NCBI GenBank assembly: GCA_023954745.1
Contig: JAGSHC010000130.1
Span: 1 to 18,267 of the forward strand
Source: Deltaproteobacteria bacterium
Lineage (GTDB): Bacteria > Myxococcota_A > UBA796 > UBA9615
Length of the DNA: 18,267 nucleotides
Direction of reading: 5' to 3'
This document shows, in pieces, positions 5,201-17,781 of the stretch. The notes below the pieces were generated by a model. The model was not told where the DNA came from. It saw only the letters and a program-made list of their open reading frames with translations, and searched no databases. Made by a program: the position numbers and the translations under genes. Within the stretch, counting starts at the first letter, position 1. Each line of letters opens with the position of its first letter.

Positions 5201-7857
5201 GGGCGCGTGTTCACCGGGAACCGGTGCTTGCCGAACTTGATGAGGTTGGCGCCGTCCCCGTCGAAGAGCTCGAGGCGGTCACGCAGCCCGCGTAGGGCGT
5301 CCTGCCGCGCGGCCTGCAGGCGGGCCAGCAGCTCCTCGCCCTTCACGGCGTCGCCCAGAGAGGTCAGCTTGTCCCCGAGGTCCCGCAGCTTGAGCACCAT
5401 GGAGTCGCTGGCGAACCAGGCGTTCAGCTCGTCCTGGTCCTTGAACGTGCGCGCCCTGCGGGCCACGCCGCTGAGGATGCGCTCCGCCGCCTTCACCAGG
5501 CTGCCGATCCGCTTCTGCCGCTCGTCCACCAGCACCTGCTTGCGCGCGCCGAGGGCGAGCTCGATCTCCTCTCGCTTGCTCGCGAGCTGAGGCAGGAACT
5601 CGTCGAACTCGCCAAACCTCGCCTCGAGCTCCTCGAGCTGGAGCATCAGGCGGGAGAGCTGGTCGTCGCAGGCCTCGGGAGAGTCCGCGAGCGCCACCGC
5701 CGACGACACGGACTGGCCCAGAAGGCTCCACTGCGCTGCGAAGTCCGCCCGCGCCTCGTGCCCCGCGATCTCCTTGCGCTTGTTGGTGAGCACCGCGCGC
5801 ACCCGGTTCACCTGGCCGAACACCTCGCCGAGCCGCTCGAGGATGGCGGCGCGCGCGGTGGCGTCGTCGATCTCCAGACCGGAGACCACCTCGGTCATGA
5901 GCTCGAGGCCCGAAATGAGCTCCCCCTGCTTCTCGACGAGGGGCTTCATGTCCACGAGGCGCTCGACGGCTTCGATCTGGCCGTGCAGCTCCTCGATGCG
6001 CTTCGTGAGGGGAGTCAGGGCGTCGTCGCCGAGGAGAAACTCCACGGTGGCGCGAGAGATGCGCTCGAACTCGCCGGCGACCTCCTCTTCCATCCCGTCG
6101 ATGGCGGCGCGGTCGATGTACCGCACGTCCCGCATCGTGATGAGGTGCCCGCGCTGGGTCCTCAGGCCCGTGAGGGCCGCCATGAACTGCTCCGCCTCCA
6201 CCCAGGAGTCGGGGTGCAGGTCGTCCTTGAGGGTGCGCTGCTGCTCGCGCGCCTCGGTGAGGGCCGATTGCGCCTCGCGCTGGAGGATCTGCACCTTCTC
6301 GAACTCGTCGATGATGAGCTCGGCGACGTCGCGCACCTTCGCCAGGGGCGAGGCGAGGGCGATCTCGTCTTCGGAGAACCAGAAGTACGTGTCCAGCGCG
6401 CGCTGGCAGGCCGTCACCAGGGCCTCGTAGACCCCGCGACTCGGCTCCTGCTCCACCACCATGCGGCCCACGGTGAGGCAGTCCGACAGTCCGCGGACCA
6501 GCTCCTTGTTGCCGATGCGGGCCAACGCGCTGCCGTCGGTGGGGACCTGCGCGGCGTGCTCGGCGGAGACGAAGGGCGTGTCCCACACCTGCATGGGGTG
6601 GACGCGTGAGGGCTCGTCGGACGCGGCCCGGAACACCACCAGGCGGCCGTCGTCGAAGAGCGACCAGCCGTGGCAGCGAATGGGATTGCGCACCTCGCGC
6701 CGGATGAGGTTGTAGGGGAAGAGCACGTAGAGCCCGTCCCGGCGGCGGTTGAAGACGAACAGCACGTCCTCGCCGTTGGGCGACGCCACCTTGCGCAGGA
6801 AGCGCAGGTCCTCGTCGACGTCCGGGAAGACCTTGTACTCCCCCGTCTGGAGCACGTAGCCGCCGGGGAAGATGACGCCGTGGTCTTCGGGCAGCGCCAC
6901 GCAGCTGTCGCCGACGCTGTCGATGCGCAGGACGTGCTGGGTGCGGCGGTTGAAGACGAGGTGGCGGTAGCGGTCCTCCATGTAGGGGCGGATGCGCAGC
7001 AGCACCAGCGAGCCACGAATCGTGTAGAGGATGTGGGCGTCGTCGAGCGACTGGTTGGGGTCGTCCACGTCCTCGCGGTACACGCCGAGGCCGTCTTCGG
7101 TGTTGTCCTCGACCTTGATGGTGAGGTCCCCGCCGACCGTCTCCACGAACACGACGTCCTCCACGCTCACGTGGGGATGGCGCCCCAGGATGTGGTCGTC
7201 GCGCGAGGTCTCAGTCCACTCGAAGTCGTGGGTCGGCGGAGGCACGAAGGCCCGCTCGCCGCGGTCGTCGATGTACTCGATGTGCTCCGACGCATCGAGG
7301 CCCCACTGGAAGACCTTGACCGAGTCCTCGGACTCGCCGGTCTGGAAGACGGCCAGCAGCTTGCGGCCGTCGCTCCGAAGCGCCACCAGGCGCGTGTCGG
7401 AGTAGTACTGGTAGAGCTGGGTGAAGGCGCGCTGGAACTCCGCCCCGTGCAGGAAGGCCGCCTCCTCCGGGGACGCCGGGGTGAACTCCAGGAGCCCGTC
7501 CTCGCGTACCGAGAAGTGCTGGACGGAGAACACGTCGTCGATGGTGGTCGTCTTGCGGAGCCCGACGAACACGTTGTACCCGAAGAGCAAGAGCCCGCCG
7601 ACCTGCACGATGTCCACGGGAACGCAGTTGTTCTCCGTGCGCACGCGCTCGGTGCCGAGCACTCCAGCCTCAGTGCCTCCGAAGAGGGCCTGACGCTGCT
7701 CGTTGAGTGCCCGGGCGGCGTCCGCGAGCCCCCGCCCCTGGCCCGAGAGCCGCTGGCGGATGACTTCGTAGCTGCCTCCCGGTCCACCCTCAGCGGGAGA
7801 GCCCCCGGCGCTCTCTGTCCCGCCGGGGGTCTCCGTGGTGGCCGAAGCCTCAGGCAT
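2227..7857 (-). CDS. Giant (1876 aa) AAA_5/MoxR-like P-loop ATPase-containing protein; disordered N-terminus, probable beta-rich N-terminal region, long alpha-helical/coiled-coil regions, ATPase module near residues ~1310-1470
   Basis: Walker A 'VSPPGYGKTTLMEY' lies at ~3901-3940 on the minus strand. Walker B 'VMLYLDDIQH' lies at ~3711-3740. A sensor-like segment 'KFAVVMAGNPYTESGDRFQIPDMLANRA' is typical of AAA_5 (MoxR/McrB/dynein-related) ATPases. The ORF is one continuous 5.6-kb reading frame with high codon-3 GC. Its ATG at 7857 overlaps the flotillin stop as ATGCCTGA. Confidence 0.8.
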   Translation of the reverse strand: MPEASATTETPGGTESAGGSPAEGGPGGSYEVIRQRLSGQGRGLADAARALNEQRQALFGGTEAGVLGTERVRTENNCVPVDIVQVGGLLLFGYNVFVGLRKTTTIDDVFSVQHFSVREDGLLEFTPASPEEAAFLHGAEFQRAFTQLYQYYSDTRLVALRSDGRKLLAVFQTGESEDSVKVFQWGLDASEHIEYIDDRGERAFVPPPTHDFEWTETSRDDHILGRHPHVSVEDVVFVETVGGDLTIKVEDNTEDGLGVYREDVDDPNQSLDDAHILYTIRGSLVLLRIRPYMEDRYRHLVFNRRTQHVLRIDSVGDSCVALPEDHGVIFPGGYVLQTGEYKVFPDVDEDLRFLRKVASPNGEDVLFVFNRRRDGLYVLFPYNLIRREVRNPIRCHGWSLFDDGRLVVFRAASDEPSRVHPMQVWDTPFVSAEHAAQVPTDGSALARIGNKELVRGLSDCLTVGRMVVEQEPSRGVYEALVTACQRALDTYFWFSEDEIALASPLAKVRDVAELIIDEFEKVQILQREAQSALTEAREQQRTLKDDLHPDSWVEAEQFMAALTGLRTQRGHLITMRDVRYIDRAAIDGMEEEVAGEFERISRATVEFLLGDDALTPLTKRIEELHGQIEAVERLVDMKPLVEKQGELISGLELMTEVVSGLEIDDATARAAILERLGEVFGQVNRVRAVLTNKRKEIAGHEARADFAAQWSLLGQSVSSAVALADSPEACDDQLSRLMLQLEELEARFGEFDEFLPQLASKREEIELALGARKQVLVDERQKRIGSLVKAAERILSGVARRARTFKDQDELNAWFASDSMVLKLRDLGDKLTSLGDAVKGEELLARLQAARQDALRGLRDRLELFDGDGANLIKFGKHRFPVNTRPLELTMVPRDGAMALHLTGTDFYEVIEDPKVAAAQPFWEQALPSEGADVSRAEFLAASILFAAEAGQSGLTVSDLEDAVLEEQELMTLVREYAAERYDEGYERGVHDADAATLLRELLHLRGTAGLLRFPPRPRAAAMLFWAWSSDSDAKERWHRRARSFGRLRETLGATGGLADLAHELAGALGTMLAEAAPSLTLAASEAAMAGSYLVEELQAEHPRFCVSSEAQTLHDALVRHLEDHGGRRILEDDLAALDGLFEERLALVRAWTAAVFGRTAEDAQTRSGAEGEGLALETAARLLTESILEHEGSAALTSVTATGLLSQHRRIRDGVLELRLDEYLGRLSGWIGETVPAFAAWRTTRHAVLERERRRLRLDEYTPRVMSAFVRNKLINDVYLPIVGDNLAKQMGSAGDSRRTDQMGLLLLVSPPGYGKTTLMEYIASRLGLVFMKVNGPALGHDVTSLDPAEAPNATARQEVEKINLAFEMANNVMLYLDDIQHTHPELLQKFISLCDGTRRIEGVWKGRTRTYDLRGKKFAVVMAGNPYTESGDRFQIPDMLANRADTYNLGDILDGREEAFALSYVENSLTSNPVLQPLATREQSDVYKLVNLARGEEVPTSDLSHEYSTVELNEVTGVLRKLARVQEVVLAVNQQYISSAAQEDAFRTEPPFKLQGSYRNMNKLSEKIVPAMNDAELDALLRDHYIGEAQTLTTGAEANLLKLWEMLGTLTDEQRARWEDIRKEFRRSMLTGGGEDDPVARVTGALSGLDRQLEAIRETLVAGSTGDLEESLEEIGVRLGTLTEQVQRGANAIGHTAKAAVKSSEMQEALVAATEAAASASAAAAAKAPTVAGQGDLAMKLDVIVGELASELQGIRKGVQGTARGLADLNVLEFLAASPDAIRSNEDVAEVQREVLLQAQNALAGNLREIDPDDMTMRSPRSAVLAGSLPVIQDLFVKIGQLLGTVSLSQEEWASLMDQLRRHVAEAVTDLAQE

Positions 7858-9778
7858 CGCTGTTCGTCTCGTTCGAGCCGGTCGCCTTGTCGATCACCTT
7901 GCCGGCAATGGCCTTGAGGCCGCCGGGGACGTCGAAGTCGCCGTCGAGCATGTCGCCGAACATGTTCTGGAGCACCTCGGACTCGCCGGCCACGGCGTCG
8001 ATGCTCTGCCCGAGGCTCACCGCCTTGATGAACCGCTCGAAGAACTCTCCGTCGCCGCCCACGATCTTGATGTCCGCGGACTCCATCGCCGTGCCGAGCA
8101 CTGCGGCCTGGGCCTCGGCGATCTCCTTGCGCACGTCAAGCGCCTGCTGCTGGAGCTGCTTCATCGTGTCCAGCTTCAGGCGGAACTCCTCGTGCTGCCA
8201 ACCCTGACCCTCGAGGGCCTTCATGGCCTCGGCCTTCTCGTGGATGCCGGCTGCCTCGGCAGCGGCCTTTTCCTTGGCGACCAGGGCCTGGGACAGACCG
8301 AGCTTCTCTTCGCCTTCCGCCTGCGCCGACATCTTCTCGATGGTGACGCGGGCCTCGGCGAGGCCTTCCTTCTCCAGGGCGATGGCGTTGGCCTCCTTGA
8401 CCCGCGCGATGGCGAGACCGGAAGCGGCTTCCTGCGCCTGGGTACCCTCGGCCAGGCGAATCTTCGCCTTCGCCTCGATGTCCGCAGCCTTGAGCTCGGC
8501 CTCGGCGAGCACGACGCGCTCCTTGGCCTGGAACTCCGCCGCCCTCTCCTGGGCCTCGGCAGCCTTGATGCTCATGATGAGCGACTCCTGGGCCGACGCC
8601 TCGGCGTCGATGACCTTCACGTCCGCGTGGCGCTTCGCCTCGGAGTTCACCCGCAGGTCCTTGATGCGCTCCTCCTCCTCGGCCACCGACTTGTCGACGG
8701 CGATGCGGGTGCGGACGACCTCGGCGATCTCCTTCTTCTCCTTCTCGATCGCCTTCTCCTTGTTGATCCGCCCGAGCTCGACCTCGCGCTCGCGGTTGAT
8801 CTCTTCGAGCTGGCGGTCCTTCTCGACCTGCTCGCTCTTGATGGCGACCACGCGCTCGCGGTCCTTGTCGGCCACCTGCACCTGCCGGGTCTTGTTCAGC
8901 TCGGCGACCTCGATGGACTCGTCCGCCTTGATGCGGGCGGCCTCGGCGCGGTTGCGCTCCTCGGAGCGGACCTTCTCGGTCTCGGCGGCTTCGCGAGCGG
9001 CCACCGTGGCGACCTCGCGGTTCTTCTTGGCGAGGGCGTCGGCGTGGCGGCGCTCCTGCTCGAAGACCTTCTCGTCCGCGTCCACCTTGAGGCGGGTGAG
9101 CTCCATGCGCTCCGACTGGCGCCGCTCCTCCGTCTTGATGTTCTGGTCCGTGGTGATCTCCGTGATCTTGCGGATGCCCTGGGCGTCGAGGATGTTCGAC
9201 GGGTCCAGGGAGCTCAGGGGCGTCTGCTCGAGGTAATCGATGGCCGCGTCGTCGAGCACGTACCCGTTCAGGTCGGTGCCGATGACTTCGATGATGCGGT
9301 CCTTGAACTCGTTCCGCATGGTGAAGAGCTGCTCGAACTCGAGCGACTTACCGACGGTCTTGAGCGCCTCGGAGAACTTCGCGACGAAGAGCTCCTCGAG
9401 CACGTCCTGACGGCTCGCACGGTCGCAGCCGAGGGCCTGGGCCACCTTGAGCACGTCGTCCTCGGTCTTGTTGACCCGGACGAAGAAGGTGACCTTGATG
9501 TCGGCGCGGATGTTGTCCTGGCAGATGAGCCCTTCAGCTCCGCGCCGGTCGAGCTCGACCGTCTTGACCGAGATGTCCATGACCTCAGCGCGGTAGATGA
9601 TGGGGAGGACGATGCCGCCCGTGAAGGAGACGACCGGCTCACCCTGCACCTTGTTGATGATGAGGGCTCGACCCTGGTCGACCTTGCGGTAGAAGCGCGT
9701 CACCAGGACCAGGAAGCCCACCACGATCAGCGCGAGGACCAGGATGGCGCCGGCGACGGCGAGTGCGGATTGGGTCAT
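7850..9778 (-). CDS. Flotillin-like SPFH/band-7 protein (YqiK/FloT family)
   Basis: N-terminal TM helix 'LAVAGAILVLALIVVGFLVLV'. SPFH core 'FYRKVDQGRALIINKVQGEPVVSFTGGIVLPIIYRAEVMDISVKTVEL...ICQDNIRADIKVTFFVRV' matches flotillin/YqiK conservation. It is followed by a >300 aa Glu/Ala-rich coiled coil and a C-terminal flotillin-type tail. ATG at 9778 has AAGGGG ~12 nt upstream. Confidence 0.9.
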   Translation of the reverse strand: MTQSALAVAGAILVLALIVVGFLVLVTRFYRKVDQGRALIINKVQGEPVVSFTGGIVLPIIYRAEVMDISVKTVELDRRGAEGLICQDNIRADIKVTFFVRVNKTEDDVLKVAQALGCDRASRQDVLEELFVAKFSEALKTVGKSLEFEQLFTMRNEFKDRIIEVIGTDLNGYVLDDAAIDYLEQTPLSSLDPSNILDAQGIRKITEITTDQNIKTEERRQSERMELTRLKVDADEKVFEQERRHADALAKKNREVATVAAREAAETEKVRSEERNRAEAARIKADESIEVAELNKTRQVQVADKDRERVVAIKSEQVEKDRQLEEINREREVELGRINKEKAIEKEKKEIAEVVRTRIAVDKSVAEEEERIKDLRVNSEAKRHADVKVIDAEASAQESLIMSIKAAEAQERAAEFQAKERVVLAEAELKAADIEAKAKIRLAEGTQAQEAASGLAIARVKEANAIALEKEGLAEARVTIEKMSAQAEGEEKLGLSQALVAKEKAAAEAAGIHEKAEAMKALEGQGWQHEEFRLKLDTMKQLQQQALDVRKEIAEAQAAVLGTAMESADIKIVGGDGEFFERFIKAVSLGQSIDAVAGESEVLQNMFGDMLDGDFDVPGGLKAIAGKVIDKATGSNETNSDA

Positions 9779-9811
9779 TTTCTTCTGTACCCCTTGTTTC
9801 GTTGTGTGTGT

Positions 9812-9833
9812 CGGGCTTCTACGCGGAAGCCCG
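9812..9833 (-). other. Perfect 8-bp stem / 6-nt loop hairpin (CGGGCTTC-tacgcg-GAAGCCCG) in the 68-bp spacer between the YqiJ-like gene and the flotillin gene; adjacent (GT)4-5 microrepeat at 9803-9811
   Basis: Read directly: 9812-9819 is the exact reverse complement of 9826-9833. On the transcribed (minus) strand it is not followed by a U-tract, so it is more likely an intercistronic processing or stability element, or an attenuator, than an intrinsic terminator. Confidence 0.4.
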
Positions 9834-9846
9834 GGTTTCTATTGCC

Positions 9847-10764
9847 TTAGTTGCTCTGCTTTCGGCGCGCTGCGACGCGGGCCCTCACCCGGTCGATGGC
9901 CGCGAGGCGTGCTGCCTGCACGTCCCCCTCGGCTGCCTTGACGTCGAGCTTCTCGACGACAAACGCCTCCCCTTCCCGGTCCCACTGCACAAGCAGCGCC
10001 CGGTCCCCCTTGCTCAGCCCCTGCTCGGAGCGGTCGCGCACCTGCACGATGTTGTGATGGCCCGCCTCGGTGACCTCCGCCTGGCCGAAGGTCTTGGTGA
10101 CCTTGCCGGTGGTGATGGTCACGACGACGCCGATGAACGAGCGGTTGCCCCGTCCTCGTTCCGTGTGGAACAGCCCTCCCAGGGGGCGCACCGCGACCGA
10201 GGCTCCAAGAGTGCCCGCCGTGAAGGCGCTCAGCGCGATGGCGGCGCCGCTCAGAAGCTCCGGCACCGGCAGCAAGGGCGCCACGTGCACCGTCATCAGG
10301 AAGCTGGCGAGCCAGGAGAACAGGACGATGAACGACAAGCTCACCGTCAGGGGGACCGTGGTGAGCTTGAGGGTCGAGAGCATCACTGCGAGCAGACCCG
10401 GGCCGTGCCCGTCTACGTCCGCATCGGCGTCGAGGCCGTCCAACGCTGCATCTCCGGCCCCCTCGAACGCGCCGTCGATGCCGTCCAGCGCCCCGTCGAG
10501 GGCATCCAGCCCGGGGAATCCGTTCCCGTCGAGGGCGTCCAAACCGTCCAGACCGTCTAGACCGTCTAGCGCTCCGTCCAGGGCGCCATCCGCCGCGCCG
10601 TCGAGGCCTCCCTCGAGCGCTCCATCGGCGCCGTCGAGGGCGTCGAGGGCGTCCAGGTCCACCGCGCCGATCACGACGAAGACCCAATAGATCAGGGACA
10701 ACAGCAGGGGCACGGTGAAGATCACCGTCGGCAGGCTCAGAACCGTCGAGACAAAGTCGCCCAT
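9847..10764 (-). CDS. YqiJ/NfeD-like inner-membrane protein with C-terminal OB-fold (flotillin partner), carrying an ~85-aa (A/G)LDG acidic tandem repeat insert
   Basis: N-terminal TM 'LPTVIFTVPLLLSLIYWVFVVIGAV', central TM cluster 'LLAVMLSTLKLTTVPLTVSLSFIVLFSWLASFLMTV...AAIALSAFTAGTLGASV'. C-terminal NfeD-type OB fold 'GVVVTITTGKVTKTFGQAEVTEAGHHNIVQVRDRSEQGLSKGDRALLVQWDREGEAFVV'. ATG at 10764 has GAGGGAG 5 nt upstream. The gene sits immediately upstream of flotillin, as in yqiJ-yqiK / nfeD-flo operons. Confidence 0.75.
   Translation of the reverse strand: MGDFVSTVLSLPTVIFTVPLLLSLIYWVFVVIGAVDLDALDALDGADGALEGGLDGAADGALDGALDGLDGLDGLDALDGNGFPGLDALDGALDGIDGAFEGAGDAALDGLDADADVDGHGPGLLAVMLSTLKLTTVPLTVSLSFIVLFSWLASFLMTVHVAPLLPVPELLSGAAIALSAFTAGTLGASVAVRPLGGLFHTERGRGNRSFIGVVVTITTGKVTKTFGQAEVTEAGHHNIVQVRDRSEQGLSKGDRALLVQWDREGEAFVVEKLDVKAAEGDVQAARLAAIDRVRARVAARRKQSN
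10405..10665 (-). repeat. Imperfect in-frame tandem repeat (9-18 nt units, e.g. gccgtcgagggcgtccag / gaccgtctag) encoding ~25 copies of (A/G)-L-D-G within the YqiJ-like protein
   Basis: The protein segment is 'DLDALDALDGADGALEGGLDGAADGALDGALDGLDGLDGLDALDGNGFPGLDALDGALDGIDGAFEGAGDAALDGLDADADVDG'. The DNA shows the iterated units directly, e.g. 10541-10570 'ccgtccagaccgtctagaccgtctagcgct'. Confidence 0.8.
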
Positions 10765-10986
10765 CCCACTCCCTCGGGCGCGTCGCTTGCGCGGCGCCGC
10801 CCGCTCCTCCGGGGACCGGAGTATCGCCCATCAGCACCGTGCTTGGTAGCTCGCAGGCCCTCGTTCTTACGGGCGGCCGACCAGTTCATTGCTACTGACC
10901 GAACGGTCGAGTTAGGCGTTTTTATCGATCTAGTTCTGGACGTTTTGGTCTCTTTGGGCAATAACTTCCCTCGGAGGCAGAACGAA
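10765..10986. promoter_or_regulatory. Divergent intergenic region between the flotillin operon (-) and the SDR/PYP operon (+); contains an AT-richer stretch (~10910-10970) and the RBS GGAGG (10972-10976) for the ATG at 10987
   Basis: Codon-3 GC collapses in all frames. 'gcgtttttatcgatctagttctggacgttttggtctctttgggcaataactt' is the lowest-GC segment in the window. Both flanking genes start outward from this region. Confidence 0.5.
10897..10908. promoter_or_regulatory. 12-bp inverted repeat GACCG-AA-CGGTC in the divergent promoter region (candidate operator)
   Basis: Read directly: half-sites GACCG and CGGTC are exact reverse complements separated by AA. The site lies ~80 bp upstream of the SDR gene ATG. 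Confidence 0.25.
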
Positions 10987-12459
10987 ATGCGTGTGTTGGT
11001 CACAGGAGCTACTGGATTCGTCGGACGGGCTTTGGCCCTTCGTCTTCTCCGTGGCGGCCACGAGATCGTCGCCTGGACCCGCAACGAAGAGCGTGCGCGG
11101 GACCTCTTGGGACCTTCGGTCCTCCTGGCGAGCGACGCCTCCCCGGGACGCCTCGAAGAGGAGGTTGCCCTCGCCGATGCGGTGGTGAACCTCGCCGGAG
11201 AGAACCTCTTCTCCGGTCGCTGGACCGAAGCCACAAAGCAACGACTGGTGAACTCCCGGGTCGACCTGACCCGGCGGATCTCCACGGCCCTGGCCGCGTC
11301 CCCCCCGCGAGACCGGGTGCTGATCAGCTCGAGCGCGGTGGGTTTCTACGGAGCCCGAGGCGACAGCGAGCTCGACGAGACGTCTGCCCGCGGGGATGGC
11401 TTCCTCGCCGACCTCTGCGTCGCCTGGGAGCAGGCGGCCACCGCGGCTCGCACCGACTCCACCCGTGTCGCAATCCTCCGCACCGGCCTGGTCCTCGGCT
11501 CCGAAGGTGGAGCCCTCGCGCGCATGCTTCCGTTGTTCAGGGCCGGCCTCGGCGGTCGCCTCGGGCACGGTCGTCAGTGGATGTCCTGGATTCACCTGCA
11601 CGACCTCGTCGGTCTCATCATGCGGGCGCTCGATGACACCTCCTTCGAGGGGGTCTTCAACGCGACGGCTCCCGAGCCGGCGACCAACCGGGAGTTCACC
11701 CGCGCCCTCGCCGATGCTTTGGGCCGACCGGCGCTCCTTCCTGCGCCGGGCGTCGCGATGCGACTGGCTCTGGGCGAGGCGGCGGGGGTCCTCTTGACCG
11801 GGCAGCGCGTTCTGCCGCGACGGGGTGCGGCGGCGGGCGTGCGCTTCGCGTACCCGACCCTCTCCGACGCCTTTGCGCAGGTCCTCGATCAAGGCCGAAC
11901 CCCCACCATTCGGCGCGCCGACCGCGGCACGAAGCCCCTCGCGAACCGCCCAGCCGCGCAGTTCGTGCTCGAGCAGGAGACCCGGATCCAGGCCCCCCTG
12001 GTCGAGGTGTTCCCGTTCTTCAGCCGCGCCGCGAACCTCGCGCTGCTGACCCCCACCTGGACGGACTTCCGCATCCTCGAGCACCCCCAGGGCGAGACCC
12101 TGCAGGGCTCGAACATCGTCTACCGCCTCACCCTGTTCGGGGTGCCGATTCGGTGGAAGACCCTCATCGCGCAGTGGGAGCCCGGAGAGCGCTTCGTCGA
12201 CACCCAGCTCCGAGGGCCGTACCGCCTCTGGTGGCACGAGCATCACTTCGCCTCCACGCCCGACGGCGGTGTCCACATGGTGGACCGGGTGTCCTACACG
12301 GTCCCCCTCGGCCCTCTGGGGCGCGTGGCGAACTCCATCCTCGTCGCACCTCTGCTGAAGCGGATCTTCGCCTGGCGAGCCGAGGCAATCACTCTTCGCT
12401 TCAACCCCGACGCCCCCCGCCATGGTCGCTCGGACACCCAGAACCGGAGCGCCGCATGA
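10987..12459 (+). CDS. TIGR01777/YfcH-family NAD-binding epimerase (SDR-like, DUF1731-type) fused to a C-terminal SRPBCC (polyketide-cyclase/START-like) ligand-binding domain
   Basis: The Rossmann motif 'MRVLVTGATGFVGRALA' sits at the extreme N-terminus. 'LRTGLVLGSEGGALARMLPLFRAGLGGRLGHGRQWMSWIHLHDLVGLI' is typical of YfcH-like proteins. The C-terminal ~150 aa 'FVLEQETRIQAPLVEVFPFFSRAANLALLTPTW...RFVDTQLRGPYRLWWHEHHF' is SRPBCC-like. The in-frame upstream TTG at 10843 is rejected because codon-3 GC there is low and the Rossmann loop would not be N-terminal. Confidence 0.8.
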   Translation: MRVLVTGATGFVGRALALRLLRGGHEIVAWTRNEERARDLLGPSVLLASDASPGRLEEEVALADAVVNLAGENLFSGRWTEATKQRLVNSRVDLTRRISTALAASPPRDRVLISSSAVGFYGARGDSELDETSARGDGFLADLCVAWEQAATAARTDSTRVAILRTGLVLGSEGGALARMLPLFRAGLGGRLGHGRQWMSWIHLHDLVGLIMRALDDTSFEGVFNATAPEPATNREFTRALADALGRPALLPAPGVAMRLALGEAAGVLLTGQRVLPRRGAAAGVRFAYPTLSDAFAQVLDQGRTPTIRRADRGTKPLANRPAAQFVLEQETRIQAPLVEVFPFFSRAANLALLTPTWTDFRILEHPQGETLQGSNIVYRLTLFGVPIRWKTLIAQWEPGERFVDTQLRGPYRLWWHEHHFASTPDGGVHMVDRVSYTVPLGPLGRVANSILVAPLLKRIFAWRAEAITLRFNPDAPRHGRSDTQNRSAA

Positions 12460-13415
12460 CCCGTCCAGTCATCGCAGTGAGCGGCTGCATCGCCGGCGAG
12501 TCCGTGCGCTTCGACGGCGGCTTCGGCAAGGACGCGTTCCTGCTGAACCAGGTGGCCCCCTTCGCAGACCTCGTCACGTTCTGTCCCGAGGTGGAGGCAG
12601 GCATGGGGACTCCACGCAACACCATCCGCCTCGTGCGTGCAAGCAGGTCCGAAGAGACTCGAGTCATCCAGAACAAGACCGGTGACGACTGGACCGAGCG
12701 TCTGCGCGCCACGTCGAGAGAGATCGCCGCACGCCTCGCGGCCGCCAACCTCTCCGGAGTCGTGGTCCGTCGAAACTCCCCCACGTGCGGCCTGGAGCGA
12801 GTGCGGATCTACGACTGGAACGCAGTGCCCAGCAAGGAAGGCGTGGGCGTCTTCGTCCAGGCCCTGCGGGAGCGCTTCCCACTGCTGGCCATCGAGGAAG
12901 ACGGACGCCTTCGAGACGCTCGCATTCGCGAGGCGTTCTTCGAGCGGGTCTTCGCCCACGCCCGCCTGCGGGAGCTGCTCGACGCGGGCACCTGGCGCGC
13001 CAGAGACGTCGTCGCCTTTCACAGCCGCGAGAAGCTGCTCCTCCTCTCCCACAGCCCGAAGGTCTACCGGGAGATGGGCCGCCTCGTCGCCCGGGTGGGC
13101 TCCATGGAGCGCGCCCCATTCGCGGCGGCCTACGCCGAGCTCTTCTTGTCCGCCATGGCTGAGCCCGCGACCCCGGGCCGCCAGGTGAACACGCTCCAGC
13201 ACGCGGCGGGGTTCCTCAAGCGGGACAGCCTCCCGGCTGAGAAGGCGCGCCTCGCCAACATCATCTCCGATTACGCCGCGGGCTTGTTGCCCCTTGCTGT
13301 GCCCGTGGCCGTACTGCGCGCCGGGATTGCTCGTACCCAGCCCTCTTGGCTGAGCGCCCAATCCTGGCTCGCCCCCCACCCCAAGCAACTGAGACTGAGG
13401 ACATGGGTTCCATGA
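12456..13415 (+). CDS. DUF523 (TudS-like Fe-S thiouracil desulfidase fold) - DUF1722 (YbgA-like) fusion protein
   Basis: ATG 12456-12458 overlaps the upstream TGA 12457-12459 (ATGA). The N-terminus 'MTRPVIAVSGCIAGESVRFDGG' and 'VVRRNSPTCGLERVRIYD' match the DUF523 conserved Cys motifs. The C-terminal half, rich in 'FFERVFAHARLRELL...LLLLSHSPKVYREMGRLVA', is YbgA/DUF1722-like. Confidence 0.8.
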   Translation: MTRPVIAVSGCIAGESVRFDGGFGKDAFLLNQVAPFADLVTFCPEVEAGMGTPRNTIRLVRASRSEETRVIQNKTGDDWTERLRATSREIAARLAAANLSGVVVRRNSPTCGLERVRIYDWNAVPSKEGVGVFVQALRERFPLLAIEEDGRLRDARIREAFFERVFAHARLRELLDAGTWRARDVVAFHSREKLLLLSHSPKVYREMGRLVARVGSMERAPFAAAYAELFLSAMAEPATPGRQVNTLQHAAGFLKRDSLPAEKARLANIISDYAAGLLPLAVPVAVLRAGIARTQPSWLSAQSWLAPHPKQLRLRTWVP

Positions 13416-14044
13416 CTGAAAACTCCTTGATGACCACCCGCTCTGTCGCCGACCTCCTCGGCGTTGGCGTGAGCTCCGTGAAGCGCTGGACCGACGAGGG
13501 AAAGCTCACCTGTGTGCGGACCGCTGGAGGACATCGTCGCTTCGAGACGGTGGAAGTAGACCGCTTCCGGCGCGAGCAGTTTGCCCAGGACCGCGAGCGC
13601 AAGCCCTACCCGGCGGCGATGCTCGACATTGATGGCTATCGGCTGCCGGCCCCACTGCACGAGCTGACCGCCGCCGAGATCGACGCGCTGCCCTTCGGCG
13701 TGATCCAGCTGGACGATGACGGCATGGTCATCTTCTACAACAAGGCCGAGAGCAAGCTGTCGGGGCGGAGCGTCGAGGACTCGGTGGGACGTTCGTTCTT
13801 CACCGAGGTGGCGCCCTGCACCAACAACAGTCTGCTGCGTGGACGGTTCGAGGACGGCATCGCCATGAAGAACCTCGACTGCACCATCGACTACACGTTC
13901 ACCTATCGCATGCGTCCGACCCCCGTGCGCATGAGGCTGCGACGCGATGGTCCGTCCAAGACCAACTGGCTCATCGTGACTCCGCGAAAGGTCGGGGACC
14001 GAAAGAGCCCCGCAGGATCGCCCGGTCGGTTCGGACGGTCTTGA
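13412..14044 (+). CDS. HTH_17 (excisionase/MerR-type DNA-binding) - photoactive yellow protein (PYP) domain fusion, paralogue 1
   Basis: ATG 13412-13414 overlaps the upstream TGA 13413-13415 (ATGA), with GAGG 11 nt upstream. The HTH is '[34 protein letters not shown]'. The PYP core '[27 protein letters not shown]...[11 protein letters not shown]...DYTFTYRM' aligns with Halorhodospira PYP, with Tyr42, Glu46, Arg52, chromophore Cys69 ('VAPCT'), Phe96 and Tyr98 conserved. Alternative in-frame starts exist at 13403 and 13430. Confidence 0.8.
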
Positions 14045-14622
14045 CCCGCGCGGGGCGGACACCAACACTGCCTCTCGTGAACGACGACCTCATCACCACC
14101 CGCGCCGCGGCAGCCCTCTTGGGCGTCGGTACGACATCCATCAAACGGTGGGCTGACGACGGCACTCTTGTCTGTGTCCGCACTGCCGGGGGCCATCGGA
14201 GGTTCCGTCGGGGGGAGGTGCTTCGGCTCCTCAACTCCTCGGAGGAGGGACCGGGCTCCGAGAGCAAGGCCGACATCCACGAGCGCCTCCCCTCCATGAC
14301 GACGGGGCAGCTCGACACCCTCGACTTCGGAGTCGTCCAATTGGGCGACGATGGCCTGGTCCTGCAGTACAACGCCTTCGAGGAAGAGTTCGCTCACCTC
14401 CGACGTCAAGATGTGGCCGGCCTGAACTTCTTCACTCACGTGGCCCCCTGCACGAACAACAAGCTCCTCTACGGCCGATTCCGAGAAGGAGTCGCACGCG
14501 GGCTCTTCGACTTCACCATGGACTACACCTTCACCTACAAGATGCAGCCCCGGGTGGTGTCGCTCCACGTGTTCCGCCACTCGGGGACGAACACCAACTG
14601 GCTGCTCGTGAGGCCGCGCTAG
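14041..14622 (+). CDS. HTH_17 - photoactive yellow protein (PYP) domain fusion, paralogue 2
   Basis: The HTH '[33 protein letters not shown]' is ~65% identical to paralogue 1. The PYP core '[22 protein letters not shown]...[11 protein letters not shown]...DYTFTYKM' has Tyr42, Glu46 and Cys69 conserved, but Thr50 and Arg52 are replaced (A, L). The start is uncertain: TTG at 14041 overlaps the upstream stop (TTGA), and GTG at 14074 would give an N-terminus colinear with paralogue 1. Confidence 0.7.
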
Positions 14623-14624
14623 AG

Positions 14625-14843
14625 ATGGACTCCTCCTCCAACAACGGGGACATGGAAGCTCAGCTCGTCGCCCTGTACGAGGAGAAGGAGCTCCTGGAGC
14701 AGGAGTTGGGGATCTCCAGCGCCGACCTCCTCATCGCGATGGTGCGCAGCATGGAAGAACAGCTGATCGCGCTCTACACGGAGAAGGAGACCTCGTGGAG
14801 GTCCGCGACTTCGCCCGCCAGCTCCTCTTCGGAGAGTCGCTAA
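14625..14843 (+). CDS. Small acidic ORF (72 aa) with an internal direct repeat (MEAQLVALYEEKELLEQ / MEEQLIALYTEKE); possibly a separate micro-protein or the displaced N-terminus of the downstream gene
   Basis: ATG at 14625 lies 3 nt after the PYP-2 stop, with GAGG 11 nt upstream. Codon-3 GC is very high up to ~14793 in this frame. The coding signal then transfers to the -1 frame at ~14795, where the downstream ORF begins. Confidence 0.3.
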   Translation: MDSSSNNGDMEAQLVALYEEKELLEQELGISSADLLIAMVRSMEEQLIALYTEKETSWRSATSPASSSSESR

Positions 14844-16711
14844 GCGACAAGCTCGCGGCGCCGCCCGCTGGCACCCTCCGCGACGATGACCCCGGGCCTC
14901 CCATGGAGGCTCCGGACGCCCCAGGTCGCCCACCCCAGTTGGCGTTTCGTTCCGACCGCCCGCCGGTCCGCTTCCCGCACGCCTCCCGCCTTGGCGATCC
15001 GTCCGCGGCGGTCACCGCCCTGCACAGCTTCGCCAACCACGAGCTCCTCGCCCTCGAGTTGATGGCCCTCGCGCTGCTTCGCTTTCCCAGCGCTGACCCG
15101 CGCTTTCGTCGCGAGCTCATCGCGACCATGCGCGATGAGCAGCGGCATCTCGCGATGTACCTGGAGCGGATCGAGGAGCTCGGGGGGCGGTTCGGAGAGC
15201 ACGCCACGAGCCCCTTCTTCTGGGACTGCCTCGCCCACACGGACACCGTCGACGCGTTCGTCGCGGGGATGAGCTTGACCCTCGAGCAGGCAAACCTCGA
15301 CTTCGCCGTGGAGTACGCCGCCGCGTTCCGCGCGGTGGGCGACGAGCGCACGGCAGCCCTCCTGGAGCGGGTTCATCGCGAGGAGATCGCACACGTCGCG
15401 CGGGGGGTTCAGCACTTCAGCCGGGCACACCCCGACACCCCGCTCTGGGAGGCGTTCGTCCAGAGCTTGCCCGACCCTCTCACTCCGCGACGCGCCCGCG
15501 GGAACACTGTGGATCTCCCCTCTCGCAGCCGCGCGGGGCTCCCCGAGAGCTTCGTGCAGCACGTGCGCGTCTACGCCCACAGCAAGGGACGCCGGCCGAT
15601 TCTGTACGTGTGGAACCCCGCGTGTGAGGACGAGATCGCCAAGGGGCCTCACCACGCGCGCGCCGCCGTGGTGGCCGATCTCGAGCACGACTTGGAGACG
15701 CTGCCGCTGCTCCTGGCCAGCGAGGACGATGTCGTGCAGGTCAGCGAAGCCCCTGCCCTCTCCTGGTTGGCGACCCTCGCCGACGCGGGACTGCCGCTCC
15801 CTCGCTTCGCCACTCCCGAGGAGGCCGCAACCCTGGAGGTGGAGCGCGTGGCGCCCTGGGGCGTCAGCCCCGCCTTCCCCCAGTGGAGCGAGACGCTGCG
15901 GCCGGTCTTCGACAAGCGCTGGTCGGCGGACTGGCTGGGACGACTCCACGACGACCTCCAGAAGCGCTCCGGCGGTCGGCTGCTCCCCGGCGACGCTCTG
16001 CCCACCCTCGTGCATGACGCGGACGACGCCTGGCGACGCGCAAAGGCGCTTCGCAGCCGAGGCTTCCCCCACGTGGTCTTCAAGCAGGGGCTCGGAGCCA
16101 GCGGACGAGGGCAGCTGCGACTCCTCCACGAGCCCGAGCCGACGACCTCCCAGTGGGGGTGGCTACGCCGTCACGGTCCCAGCGGTCTGCGGGTGGAGCC
16201 GTGGCTGGAGCGGGAGGCGGACCTGTCGTTCCATTTCGACCTCGACGACGCCGGCCTGCACCCGCGCGGGGTCGTCTCCTTCACGACCGACCGAGGAGGG
16301 CGCTTTCTTGCAGCGCGGGTCGGCTCCCCCACCGCAGGACTGCCTGGCCCGGTGCGTCGATTCCTCGCTGGCGACGGCAAGGACACCCGATGGCTCGACC
16401 GGGTTCTCGCGGGCTTGGCCGCCCTCGCGGAGCCGCTCTGGGACGCTGGCCATCGCGGCCCCGTCGGCATCGATGCGATGGTCGCGCTGGACCCCCGTGA
16501 CGGACGCCGTGCGCTTCAACCCATGCTGGAGCTCAATCCGCGCTGGACGTTCGGACGCCTCGCGCTGCGGCTGAGAGGCCGAGGAGCGAGGAACGGGTGG
16601 CTCCGACTGGTCTCACCCGACGACGCACCGGGGCTGGTCGCCGCGGGAGCCGTCGCGCTCAACGACCCTCAGCGCGCCCGGCGGGTGGTCGCAGTCTGGG
16701 ACCGCGGGTAA
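14795..16711 (+). CDS. Ferritin-like diiron-motif domain (DUF455-like) fused to an ATP-grasp-like C-terminal domain
   Basis: GTG at 14795 has a strong SD 'AAGGAG' (14784-14789) and a 5-nt spacer. An alternative ATG is at 14903. The N-terminal half has paired E...ExxH motifs ('ANHELLALE', 'RDEQRHL', 'LEQANLDF', 'HREEIAHV') typical of ferritin-like/DUF455 proteins. The C-terminal half has ATP-grasp-like segments ('PHVVFKQGLGASGRGQLRL', 'GIDAMV', 'LELNPRWT' ExN motif). Confidence 0.65.
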   Translation: MEVRDFARQLLFGESLSDKLAAPPAGTLRDDDPGPPMEAPDAPGRPPQLAFRSDRPPVRFPHASRLGDPSAAVTALHSFANHELLALELMALALLRFPSADPRFRRELIATMRDEQRHLAMYLERIEELGGRFGEHATSPFFWDCLAHTDTVDAFVAGMSLTLEQANLDFAVEYAAAFRAVGDERTAALLERVHREEIAHVARGVQHFSRAHPDTPLWEAFVQSLPDPLTPRRARGNTVDLPSRSRAGLPESFVQHVRVYAHSKGRRPILYVWNPACEDEIAKGPHHARAAVVADLEHDLETLPLLLASEDDVVQVSEAPALSWLATLADAGLPLPRFATPEEAATLEVERVAPWGVSPAFPQWSETLRPVFDKRWSADWLGRLHDDLQKRSGGRLLPGDALPTLVHDADDAWRRAKALRSRGFPHVVFKQGLGASGRGQLRLLHEPEPTTSQWGWLRRHGPSGLRVEPWLEREADLSFHFDLDDAGLHPRGVVSFTTDRGGRFLAARVGSPTAGLPGPVRRFLAGDGKDTRWLDRVLAGLAALAEPLWDAGHRGPVGIDAMVALDPRDGRRALQPMLELNPRWTFGRLALRLRGRGARNGWLRLVSPDDAPGLVAAGAVALNDPQRARRVVAVWDRG

Positions 16712-16803
16712 GCGGACAGCCGGGGGCCGCTCAGTCCGGGAAGGCCTGGCAGAAGCCCGATGCCGCTGAAGCCACCTCCGCAGGCGTCGTTCGCCGCGAC
16801 GTC

Positions 16804-17781
16804 TCATGGCGCCGGTCCTCGCTCACCCGGAGCTGTGCCGGATGACTCGATGTCGAACAGACGCAGGATCTGATTGCGCCAGCTTGCAGGCGCGGCGATG
16901 ACGATACGATCCGTCTGCGCCACGGCGCGGCCATCGGGCAGAGACCCCACCACCACCCTCTCCTCTTCGCCGGTCTCACTGATCCACTCCACGGTGAGCC
17001 CTCCAGCCGCGAGGGCCTCTTCGGCCATCGGAGACAACGGCCGGGGCAGCACTTCCCCCCCTGGGACCGCAGTCAGGGACCAGCCCACCGCCTCCGCCAT
17101 GTCGCGGTCGGCGACGTCCAAGGACCTGCCGCTGCCGACGCGGTCCATCCACCATTTGGCGGGGCCAGCGCCAGGTTCGCGCACGAGAGTGCGGCGGTGG
17201 GTTCCGTCGTCTACGTGGAGGACAGCGGGGTCACCGACACAGAGAAGAGGCTCGGTGGGGTCGAGCCAATACTCCACGCGCGCGAGTTCGAGGGGGTCCT
17301 GTTCGAGGAGCAGCTCGCTCCAGAAGGCCGTCCGCTGCCCTTTGACCCGGACCGCTCGACGCCCGCGCACGAGGCGGTCTCCAAGAGCGACATGCAGAAG
17401 CCGGATGTCTCGGTCCCGATCGAATCCGACAGCCACCCTGTGGGGCCCAAGGCGCATGGCCTCGTCCCCCCGGACCGTCTCCACCTCCGCAGCGGCCTCC
17501 ACGAGCCTCAGCCCCTGGACCGCGTCGAAGAGCGCCCCCACTCTCCCCGCCGTGACGCGTCCCGCGGCACCCCGGTAGATCTCCCACCCCGCGTCGGAGC
17601 CCTCGCGACGCAGCCCCAAGGTGTGATCCCCCTGGGTGATCTCGATGAGTTGCACGCTCGCAGGCTCGAGGCGGAGGGTGTAGGGCGGATCTGCCGGGAC
17701 TGCGCCCCGCCACTGATCCAGCACCAGAAACGTCAGGATCGCTACAAGGACGACCACCGCAGCACGCACGAAGCGCCTCAC
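16804..17781 (-). CDS. Hypothetical membrane-anchored protein (N-terminal signal-anchor helix, extracytoplasmic domain)
   Basis: N-terminus 'MRRFVRAAVVVLVAILTFLVLDQW' looks like a signal-anchor. Codon-3 GC is high throughout. No catalytic motifs are recognised. It is convergent with the upstream + strand operon, with a 92-bp spacer. Confidence 0.55.
   Translation of the reverse strand: MRRFVRAAVVVLVAILTFLVLDQWRGAVPADPPYTLRLEPASVQLIEITQGDHTLGLRREGSDAGWEIYRGAAGRVTAGRVGALFDAVQGLRLVEAAAEVETVRGDEAMRLGPHRVAVGFDRDRDIRLLHVALGDRLVRGRRAVRVKGQRTAFWSELLLEQDPLELARVEYWLDPTEPLLCVGDPAVLHVDDGTHRRTLVREPGAGPAKWWMDRVGSGRSLDVADRDMAEAVGWSLTAVPGGEVLPRPLSPMAEEALAAGGLTVEWISETGEEERVVVGSLPDGRAVAQTDRIVIAAPASWRNQILRLFDIESSGTAPGERGPAP

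Follow-up and report, generated by a model that had tools for sequence, protein, structure and literature searches.

Photoreceptors and PYP proteins related to the locus

CarH/LitR photoreceptors, among them CtMerR (PDB 8JBS/8JBT), consist of an N-terminal MerR-like/HTH_17 DNA-binding domain of the helix-turn-helix (HTH) type and a C-terminal light sensor. EL222-type LOV-HTH proteins, of ∼200 amino acids (aa), also join a PAS-fold blue-light sensor to an HTH, and light alters the availability of the HTH as well as dimerization. Domains of the photoactive yellow protein (PYP) family act as the input module of larger signalling proteins, namely, Ppr, Ppd, MCP-PYP, PYP-V4R, and REC-PYP (PMC12826048, PMC9664959). 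The DNA analyzed here is an 18,267-nt stretch of a deltaproteobacterial genome assembly (contig JAGSHC010000130.1, hereafter the window), which is a single 18-kb contig of the source organism with 68% G+C. Two adjacent genes of the window, designated PYP1 and PYP2, code for proteins with the predicted architecture of paralogous photoreceptor-regulator fusions, i.e., a winged helix of the HTH_17/MerR-like type at the N-terminus and a PYP domain at the C-terminus (HTH-PYP). Judged from sequence and structural models, PYP1 and PYP2 are probably natural light-controlled gene switches.

The HTH-PYP proteins share the domain order of CarH/LitR, and another likeness is that the regulator gene lies in or beside a photoprotection operon, which in the case of CarH/LitR is light-inducible and can include rudS and photolyase genes (PMC11417400). 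The sensor of CarH/LitR is a B12-binding Rossmann domain with a four-helix bundle, whereas that of HTH-PYP is a PYP/PAS domain with a predicted site for Cys-linked p-coumarate. The expected colour would be blue/near-UV for HTH-PYP and green for CarH/LitR, and the photochemistry of HTH-PYP would be reversible, in contrast to the irreversible cleavage of the Co-C bond in CarH. EL222 differs in having its HTH at the C-terminus and not at the N-terminus, in binding flavin in place of p-coumarate, and in its LuxR-type HTH as against the HTH_17/MerR-like HTH of HTH-PYP. In the PmSB-LOV/PmlR2 pair of Pseudomonas mendocina (a short LOV protein and a class II LitR), nearby light-inducible genes are under a MerR-family regulator, which is in turn controlled by a PAS-type blue-light sensor; there, sensor and regulator are separate proteins and the sensor is LOV, whereas HTH-PYP is a covalent fusion with a PYP sensor (PMC9758184). 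The outputs of the multidomain PYP proteins named above are a kinase, c-di-GMP enzymes, or a chemoreceptor, and a DNA-binding output is not listed (PMC12826048, PMC9664959). The PYP domain also differs in position, being C-terminal in HTH-PYP, unlike in the Ppr/Ppd-type multidomain PYPs. BldC of Streptomyces (PDB 6AMA/6AMK), which is a developmental regulator consisting of a stand-alone HTH_17/MerR-like protein, has a similar HTH, and its 9-bp head-to-tail binding matches the phasing of repeats found at this locus; however, BldC is devoid of a sensor domain, and the HTH-PYPs, which carry one, score under the BldC subfamily cut-off.

The survey of 789 PYP homologues by Xing et al. (2022) named Ppr and Ppd as multidomain forms and reported transcriptional regulators as neighbours only (PMC9664959). 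The survey of 984 homologues by Dohmen et al. (2025) counted as multidomain only proteins of >200 aa, with PHY, kinase, GGDEF/EAL, V4R, REC, and MCP as the partners; HTH, MerR, and DNA binding are never mentioned in its main text, and an ‘HTH_17 PAS’ protein (MBX2811747.1) is a single uncommented entry in its supplementary table. The HTH-PYP members, at 181–210 aa, mostly lie under this 200-aa threshold. Myxobacterial PYP genes have been described as candidate blue-light receptors only. A literature search, which did not cover the PYP review of Meyer et al. (2012), yielded no paper pairing PYP with the terms HTH_17, excisionase, or BldC, and a search for PYP with MerR gave no title on such a fusion, as judged by title. 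An earlier reading of this DNA from its letters alone (the sequence-only reading) had taken a DNA-binding PYP fusion to be uncharacterised, which is in agreement with its not being discussed in the 2022 and 2025 surveys. The sensor, the output domain, and the logic (CarH/LitR, LOV-HTH) are each known, while the HTH-PYP combination is undescribed.

Two adjacent genes encode HTH-PYP fusion proteins

PYP1 and PYP2 are adjacent, co-oriented open reading frames (ORFs) on the + strand without an internal stop codon or frameshift (Table 1). The sequence-only reading had recognized them as two HTH_17-PYP fusion ORFs in tandem, and profile searches matched both halves in PYP1 and PYP2, respectively (PF12728, 38.6 and 37.3 bits; TIGR02373 photo_yellow, E values of 1.8e-33 and 3e-29). 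The ATG of PYP1 overlaps the TGA of the upstream rudS gene (ATGA) with GAGGA located 10 nt upstream of it, and the orthologues of PYP1 (74–88% identity) have the same N-terminus. The start of PYP2 is most likely GTG 14077, as in GenBank MCO4771930.1 and in orthologues beginning with V[NQ]D[DEQ]LITTR, the alternative being TTG 14041 (193 aa). Both proteins belong to a family of basic proteins (isoelectric point, pI, of 8.0–9.4), and in these fusions the HTH and the PYP domain are separated by a linker of ∼25 residues.

The sequence-only reading had itself raised the possibility that the HTH region is a separate ORF and the fusion an annotation artefact of a sequencing frameshift. In a wider form of this reading, the fusion would be an artefact of annotation or assembly, with the HTH region untranslated or forming a separate gene. 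The GenBank record MCO4771929.1 gives some ground for this, as it begins PYP1 at Met70, retains only the last 141 aa under the name ‘PAS domain-containing protein’, and omits the whole HTH (13412-13618); a PYP annotation is absent from both genes in GenBank. However, each gene is a single uninterrupted ORF, an independent Logan assembly gives PYP1 in its 210-aa form, the two domains occur together in ∼50 homologue clusters, and the ATGA overlap with rudS is conserved. Comparison of the HTH codons of the window with those of five related loci (L081, L084, L086, L001, and L005) showed 21–34 synonymous-only differences vs. 8–11 amino-acid changes. Since synonymous differences outnumber amino-acid changes by about 3:1, the HTH region is, by its codon pattern, translated and under purifying selection. 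A frameshift or separate-ORF artefact was thus ruled out by the uninterrupted ORFs, the constraint on the HTH codons, and the independent 210-aa call, and an artefact of any kind is hardly credible; the 141-aa call of PYP1 in GenBank is a miscalled start.

The PYP domain and its chromophore site

In both proteins, Pfam placed a PAS fold C-terminal of HTH_17, and the nearest solved sequence relatives were the PYP domain of Ppr (6.8e-27) and the PYP of Halorhodospira halophila (∼1e-25). PYP1 and PYP2 both contain VAPCTNN, the predicted Cys69-type attachment site for p-coumaric acid. Alignment with H. halophila PYP showed Tyr42, Glu46, Cys69, Phe62, Phe63, Ala67, Pro68, Phe96, Tyr98, and Met100 to be present in both paralogues, i.e., 10 of about 15 pocket residues, and upheld the earlier statement that the attachment cysteine, Tyr42, and Glu46 are kept. 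These three residues were invariant in two alignments of HTH-PYP sequences (34/34 and 50/50). Positions 50–52 read Ser-Gly-Arg in PYP1 and Ala-His-Leu in PYP2 in the same alignment; Arg52 of PYP1 and Ala50/Leu52 of PYP2 had been read correctly before, while the change of Thr50 to Ser in PYP1 itself had been missed. The PYP2 subfamily typically has Ala50, Leu52 is peculiar to the PYP2 of the window (Arg in many orthologues), and both positions are variable across the HTH-PYP family.

The domain had been described as a full PYP domain, which holds for the PYP fold and fails for the N-terminal cap, the first ∼7–13 residues of which are absent. The profile match starts at position 14 in PYP1 and at position 8 in PYP2, and therefore the HTH is predicted to replace the first part of the cap. 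An AlphaFold2 (AF2) model of PYP1, for which 50 sequences of the family were used, had a mean predicted local distance difference test (pLDDT) score of 89.9. The top 40 PDB matches of its PYP part in Foldseek were all PYP or PYP-derived, with a root-mean-square deviation of 1.2–1.6 Å and a TM(target) of 0.84–0.94, and generic PAS domains trailed with E values of about 1e-5, ∼10^6-fold worse than PYP.

A different reading is that the PYP-like domain is no photoreceptor but an apo or other-ligand PAS domain serving as a sensor or dimerization module, which would make PYP1 and PYP2 ordinary PAS-HTH regulators. The variability of positions 50 and 52 in the family would fit this, and so would the scores of the two proteins with TIGR02373 (115.2 and 101.6 bits), which lie under the NCBI equivalog cut-off of 143.05. 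Calibration of the profile showed that a truncated H. halophila PYP (198.7) and a Ppr fragment (183.3) both pass, whereas stand-alone myxobacterial-type PYPs (109.5 and 128.3) and other HTH-PYPs (100–112) are all under the cut-off; the low score would therefore reflect divergence of the clade and not truncation. This profile is known to capture only about 20% of PYP homologues (PMC9664959). Linkage to the genes of chromophore synthesis, TAL and pCL, was also lacking: in 31 HTH-PYP loci, neither was detected over a distance of about 10 kb (Pfam on called genes, PROSITE signatures), nor was either detected within the window (profile searches of window proteins), and such genes were seen beside 11 stand-alone PYP loci. 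However, accepted PYP genes are also mostly unlinked, only about 10% having TAL and 30% having pCL in their vicinity (PMC9664959). The invariance of Cys69, Tyr42, and Glu46 and the conservation of the pocket would be expected only if a thioester chromophore and its hydrogen-bond network are maintained, and the neighbouring photoprotection genes likewise speak for a light sensor. A PAS domain without photoreceptor function is considered unlikely.

Among the PYP proteins of the representative library, one of 1174 aa (P0123) resembles a chemoreceptor in its N-terminal region; four PYP domains follow in tandem, and an APC(T/C) motif is present in each of them (residues 659, 814, 962, and 1110).

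The DNA-binding domain

The N-terminal region of PYP1 and PYP2 scored above the cut-off with PF12728 (HTH_17; gathering score of 27), with TIGR01764 (excise; 38.8 and 34.6 vs. 28.8), and with PF13411 (29.5 and 26.0 vs. 21.6), while with PF00376 (cut-off of 28.2) PYP1 was above (29.4) and PYP2 below (22.4). In the AF2 model of PYP1, the HTH region has a pLDDT of 94–97, and the wing is followed by one 14-residue helix (46–59) and then by the linker into the PAS domain, no canonical MerR coiled coil being evident. The nearest solved structure of the PYP1 HTH was 8JBS (E 1.6e-9), which is CtMerR, an adenosylcobalamin-dependent CarH-like photoreceptor (PMC11796333), followed by BldC (6AMK/6AMA, ∼3e-8). 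The BldC subfamily model NF033787 gave 52.9 bits for PYP1 and 49.2 bits for PYP2, under its 77-bit cut-off, and both proteins have a C-terminal PYP domain and are not stand-alone proteins of ∼70 aa. The cobalamin-binding domains PF02310/PF02607 had no Pfam match in PYP1 or PYP2. Many proteins composed of HTH_17 and a B12-binding domain are, however, 50–68% identical to the PYP1 HTH; by this sequence relationship, the HTH derives from a photoreceptor-regulator lineage, in which one DNA-binding module became combined with B12 and with PYP, two light sensors that are unrelated.

The matches to the excisionase model and to BldC could also mean that the HTH_17 domain binds DNA in an architectural, nucleoid-associated, or excisionase-like manner, comparable to Xis, RdfS, or BldC filaments, and is not a promoter-specific factor; BldC and RdfS have loose sequence specificity, and no family-wide operator was found. 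Against this, integrase or mobile-element genes were not found near the HTH-PYP pair, the chromosomal synteny is stable over several lineages, and the promoters of the family itself carry conserved promoter-proximal repeats. Transcription regulators of the B12 photoreceptor type are, moreover, the full-length proteins to which the HTH is most closely related. A purely architectural role is, on this evidence, very improbable.

The HTH-PYP family and the age of the pair

The architecture of HTH_17 with a PYP-type PAS domain was found in the ∼50 clusters mentioned above (90% identity; proteins of 163–234 aa). Full-length relatives occurred in 27 species-level genomes, all of them metagenome-assembled genomes or single-cell assemblies, labelled mostly as Myxococcota, Myxococcales, Kofleriaceae, Haliangium, Sandaracinaceae, or ‘Deltaproteobacteria’. 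At 50% identity, only two or three representatives (P0125, P0126) remained among 1.84 billion proteins; by these counts, the family is small and compact. In a neighbor-joining tree of the PYP domain, for which no support values were computed, the HTH-PYPs formed one clade apart from the stand-alone PYPs, with the PYP1-type and PYP2-type as sister groups.

PYP1 and PYP2 are 47% identical. The tandem duplication proposed in the sequence-only reading was confirmed as far as the pair is paralogous, but it is an ancient one: a recent event was ruled out by the 47% identity, by the sister subfamilies, and by the occurrence of the PYP2-type alone in L001 and L005. These two nearest syntenic relatives without PYP1 have a DUF3686 ATPase gene, two unassigned genes, a PYP2-type gene, a small-protein gene, and a DUF455 gene, and the yfcH-rudS-PYP1 block is wholly absent from them. 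Because of this arrangement, PYP2 looks like the resident gene, PYP1 having arrived or been retained together with the photoprotection genes. Sequence divergence and synteny thus mark the pair as an old, maintained duplication.

Genes surrounding the HTH-PYP pair

The gene preceding PYP1 is predicted to be of the RudS type, as it encodes a TudS-DUF1722 fusion in which Cys11, Cys43, and Cys111 form the cluster-binding cysteine pattern given in Table 1 of PMC11417400. RudS strips 4-thiouridine from tRNA and lessens UVA-induced growth delay, and light-inducible operons under LitR control are known to include its genes (PMC11417400). The overlap of the rudS stop with the PYP1 start is conserved in L081, L084, and L086, and PYP1 is, on the sequence, translationally coupled to rudS. 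The order RudS, PYP1-type, PYP2-type, small protein, and DUF455 protein is common to L081–L083, L084/L085, and L086, which are from related uncultured Myxococcota, the gene order being conserved in at least four of these; in L086, a yfcH gene is also present upstream, as in the window.

In a distant clade of HTH-PYPs (L013, L051, L015, and L026; about 45% identity), the gene arrangement differs from that of the window, and the regulator and the small gene are flanked by genes for RudS, DNA photolyase, YfcH, SRPBCC, DUF2878, and DUF1295 proteins. The YfcH and SRPBCC parts, joined in the first gene of the operon in the window, are separate genes beside HTH-PYP in L013 and L051. RudS linkage was found in 9/31 non-redundant HTH-PYP loci vs. 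0/∼50 stand-alone PYP loci in the same search, these counts not being phylogenetically independent. The recurring linkage to RudS and photolyase is the main evidence for a role of HTH-PYPs in the regulation of light-stress genes.

Synteny of the DUF455 gene with PYP2 and the small gene extends to L001, L005, L081, L084, and L086, i.e., to the closest clade only, and the DUF455 ORF overlaps that of the small protein by 48 nt. No family or solved relative was matched by the C-terminal half of the DUF455 protein (∼380 aa). This half was considered as a chromophore ligase and rejected, given the lack of such a match and the restriction of the linkage to the closest clade.

Other features of the surroundings were recorded. 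In L013 (1523-10549) and L051 (392-8312), of the distant clade described above, which is marine and of lower GC, an apparent full photoprotection cluster surrounds the HTH-PYP and small genes. A conserved block of three genes, coding for a 1876-aa DUF3686/DUF7902 AAA ATPase, a 642-aa protein that is faintly flotillin-like, and a 305-aa protein without family, lies upstream of the PYP locus in the window as well as in L001, L005, L081, and L086. A search of the window with Rfam gave no RNA families.

Table 1. Location of the HTH-PYP genes, their domains, neighbouring genes, and candidate regulatory elements in the window.
Feature	Position	Strand	Remarks
PYP1 gene	13412..14044	+	HTH_17-PYP fusion, 210 aa, ATG 13412 to stop; domains by Pfam/NCBIfam profiles
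PYP1 HTH_17/MerR-like winged helix	13427..13579	+	residues 6-56; PF12728 38.6 bits
PYP1 PYP domain	13655..13978	+	residues 82-189; TIGR02373 115.2 bits, profile positions 14-121; Cys69-equivalent codon TGC 13817-13819
PYP2 gene	14077..14622	+	HTH_17-PYP fusion, 181 aa from GTG; start from orthologues and conserved promoter geometry
PYP2 HTH_17 domain	14089..14238	+	PF12728 37.3 bits, PF13411 26.0, TIGR01764 34.6
PYP2 PYP domain	14269..14613	+	TIGR02373 101.6 bits, profile positions 8-122; Cys69-equivalent codon TGC 14449-14451
Conserved block upstream of the operon, candidate operator	10905..10966	.	9-bp-phased GGWCG repeats GGTCGAGTT AGGCGTTTT ...; GGACGTTTT GGTCTCTTT GGGCAATAA
Candidate internal PYP2 promoter	14024..14069	.	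repeats GGTCGGTTC GGACGGTCT, TTGACC 14041-14046, 17-nt spacer, AACACT 14064-14069, 7 nt to GTG 14077
YfcH-type (TIGR01777) NAD oxidoreductase with SRPBCC/polyketide-cyclase-like domain	10987..12459	+	first gene of the operon
RudS-type tRNA 4-thiouridine desulfidase	12456..13415	+	TudS PF04463 117 bits and DUF1722 PF08349 103 bits; predicted activity
Small acidic two-helix protein, candidate PYP partner	14625..14843	+	72 aa, pI 4.1; GenBank ‘hypothetical protein KDA24_18010’
DUF455 (ferritin-like) protein	14795..16711	+	PF04305 147.5 bits; start uncertain; last gene of the PYP2-small-DUF455 unit
Conserved block of three genes	2227-10764	-	

Candidate promoters and operators

Two short DNA elements were found to be conserved around the pair. 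Upstream of the operon, the footprint CTGGACGyTTTrGTC...GGGCwATwmCT is common to the window, L081, and L086 and contains GGWCG pentamers at a 9-bp phase. The second element was seen when six loci were aligned on the PYP2-type GTG, which showed two 9-bp repeats, CTTGAC(C/G), a 17-nt spacer, a GAnACT-like hexamer, and 6–7 nt to the GTG; the same geometry is present in L001, L005, L081, L084, and the solitary HTH-PYP gene of L088. This block lies across the end of PYP1 in the window, straddles the stop codon in L084, and is intergenic in L001/L005. Since it is coding in some loci and intergenic in others, the conserved element is, by this comparison, the DNA and not the tail of the PYP1 protein. 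The shared layout and the 6–7 nt between hexamer and GTG suggest that PYP2 probably has its own internal promoter and a leaderless mRNA. PYP2 appears to retain an ancestral promoter of its own, the two genes probably having separate promoters.

The motif GGWCG-N4-RGWCK occurred at 12 sites in five related promoters vs. 0.6 expected, an enrichment of about 20-fold for a motif derived from the same sequences. BldC is known to bind 9-bp direct repeats head-to-tail (PMC11963761), and by analogy with it the conserved 9-bp-phased repeats are reasonable candidate operators. Terminator-like sites in 10600-17000 were at chance level.

The small acidic protein

The gene following PYP2 codes for a small acidic protein predicted by AF2 to be a helical hairpin (H4-28 and H33-62). 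Almost every related locus has the small gene as an immediate neighbour of the HTH-PYP gene, be it downstream, upstream, or in divergent orientation. A profile hidden Markov model of its ∼45-residue unit (consensus ..EAQLxxLYxERExLxxELGxsDxxxIIxMVRSLEAQLxxLY) showed the unit to adjoin PYP genes in 57/88 loci. Members of this small-protein family are encoded beside the PYP genes of L001–L052 and L081–L088, across several phyla. Some relatives contain 3–10 copies of the unit in one protein, and genes for multi-repeat proteins of this kind immediately precede stand-alone PYP genes in Armatimonadota, Gemmatimonadota, and Myxococcaceae. Six proteins (P0187, P0132, P0139, P0152, P0157, and P0269) are fusions in which the unit lies on the N-terminal side of PYP domains. 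A profile search with the unit returned 313 clusters, none with a descriptive name (nearly all ‘hypothetical’) and nearly all without a Pfam domain. The known PYP-binding protein of Rhodobacter capsulatus (PBP) was considered as a counterpart and cannot be equated with the small protein, their sizes being 16 kDa vs. 8 kDa. In L004 (∼9990) and L016 (∼10000), the start codons of the divergent small and HTH-PYP genes overlap as CATG, and therefore the promoters would lie inside each other's coding sequence.

From gene linkage and fusions, the switch is probably modulated by the acidic two-helix protein through binding to the PYP domain. The sequence-only reading had seen in HTH-PYP a minimal one-component regulator. 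The fusion and the light-linked gene context are consistent with such a regulator; the strictly one-component nature is doubtful, since the conserved small gene adjoins nearly every HTH-PYP gene and many stand-alone PYPs and the unit is fused to PYPs. The system is thus probably not strictly one-component. A stronger version would be a two-protein system in which PYP signals mainly by light-dependent binding of the small acidic protein, the HTH serving only as a DNA tether of the complex; alternatively, the small protein would be an anti-repressor, like CarS on CarA/CarH. The position of the small gene beside HTH-PYP and stand-alone PYP genes, the CATG overlaps, and the fusions argue for it, as does the opposite charge of the partners, the small protein being acidic and the HTH-PYPs basic. 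However, the argument is built on gene linkage and fusion, and linkage could come from co-regulation alone; this account also extends the light-gated regulator reading and does not exclude it. A two-protein system of this kind is possible, though it is not the account that is favoured here. The general proposal that the ∼45-residue acidic unit is a physical signalling partner of PYP domains, which binds in a light-dependent manner and gates DNA binding by HTH-PYP, is put forward as tentative and on balance doubtful. If true, the unit would be the missing downstream element for the stand-alone PYPs of Myxococcota, Gemmatimonadota, Armatimonadota, and others, and HTH-PYP with the small protein would represent an unrecognised, widespread PYP signalling module and no one-off fusion.

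Proposed mechanism

The explanation as a whole, that HTH-PYPs are light-gated DNA-binding regulators of photoprotection genes, is regarded as fairly probable. The conserved cysteine would carry thioester-linked p-coumarate, and blue/near-UV light would start the usual PYP photocycle. The signalling state of PYP loosens the N-terminal cap. Since the HTH sits exactly at the cap, light may act on the HTH by shifting its orientation or oligomerization, and hence DNA binding. The likely targets would be the 9-bp-phased direct repeats at the two promoters, one before yfcH-rudS-PYP1 and the other, internal, before PYP2-small-DUF455, with binding to the repeats possibly head-to-tail as in BldC. As the output, photoprotection genes would be expressed in a light-dependent and autoregulated manner, including that of RudS, which would remove the UVA-sensitive tRNA base 4-thiouridine (s4U). 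HTH-PYP may in this way occupy the place held elsewhere by B12- or LOV-dependent LitR/CarH regulators.

Several observations weigh against a light-gated regulator, beginning with the sub-threshold TIGR02373 scores and the lack of TAL/pCL linkage described above. Every carrier of the family is uncultured, and the proposal does not specify whether light turns the switch on or off. The motif GGWCG-N4-RGWCK showed no enrichment in the upstream DNA of 25 distant members of the family (3 sites vs. 4.4 expected), and a family-wide operator was rejected on this failure, shared k-mers of the divergent intergenic regions being uninformative. A scan of 10600-17000 with the sigma-70 consensus gave 0 sites. 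A palindromic operator was not detected, with only weak inverted repeats of 9–11 nt in 10740-11000; the upstream palindrome mentioned in the sequence-only reading was not found either, the conserved DNA consisting of the 9-bp-phased direct repeats.

Significance of the HTH-PYP fusion

PYP has served as a model photoreceptor for decades, but the route from its light absorption to a cellular response is still largely obscure (PMC12826048; bioRxiv 10.1101/2021.06.01.446672). A PYP fused to a DNA-binding domain offers a concrete and testable output, i.e., light-dependent binding at two short promoter regions and the expression of a defined operon. One HTH lineage would be coupled to B12 and to PYP sensors over the same class of photoprotection genes (RudS, photolyase). 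A protein of ∼180 aa with a reversible blue-light switch could also find use as a compact optogenetic regulator. If the small partner protein is validated, its relevance to PYP signalling would extend far beyond the HTH-PYP family.

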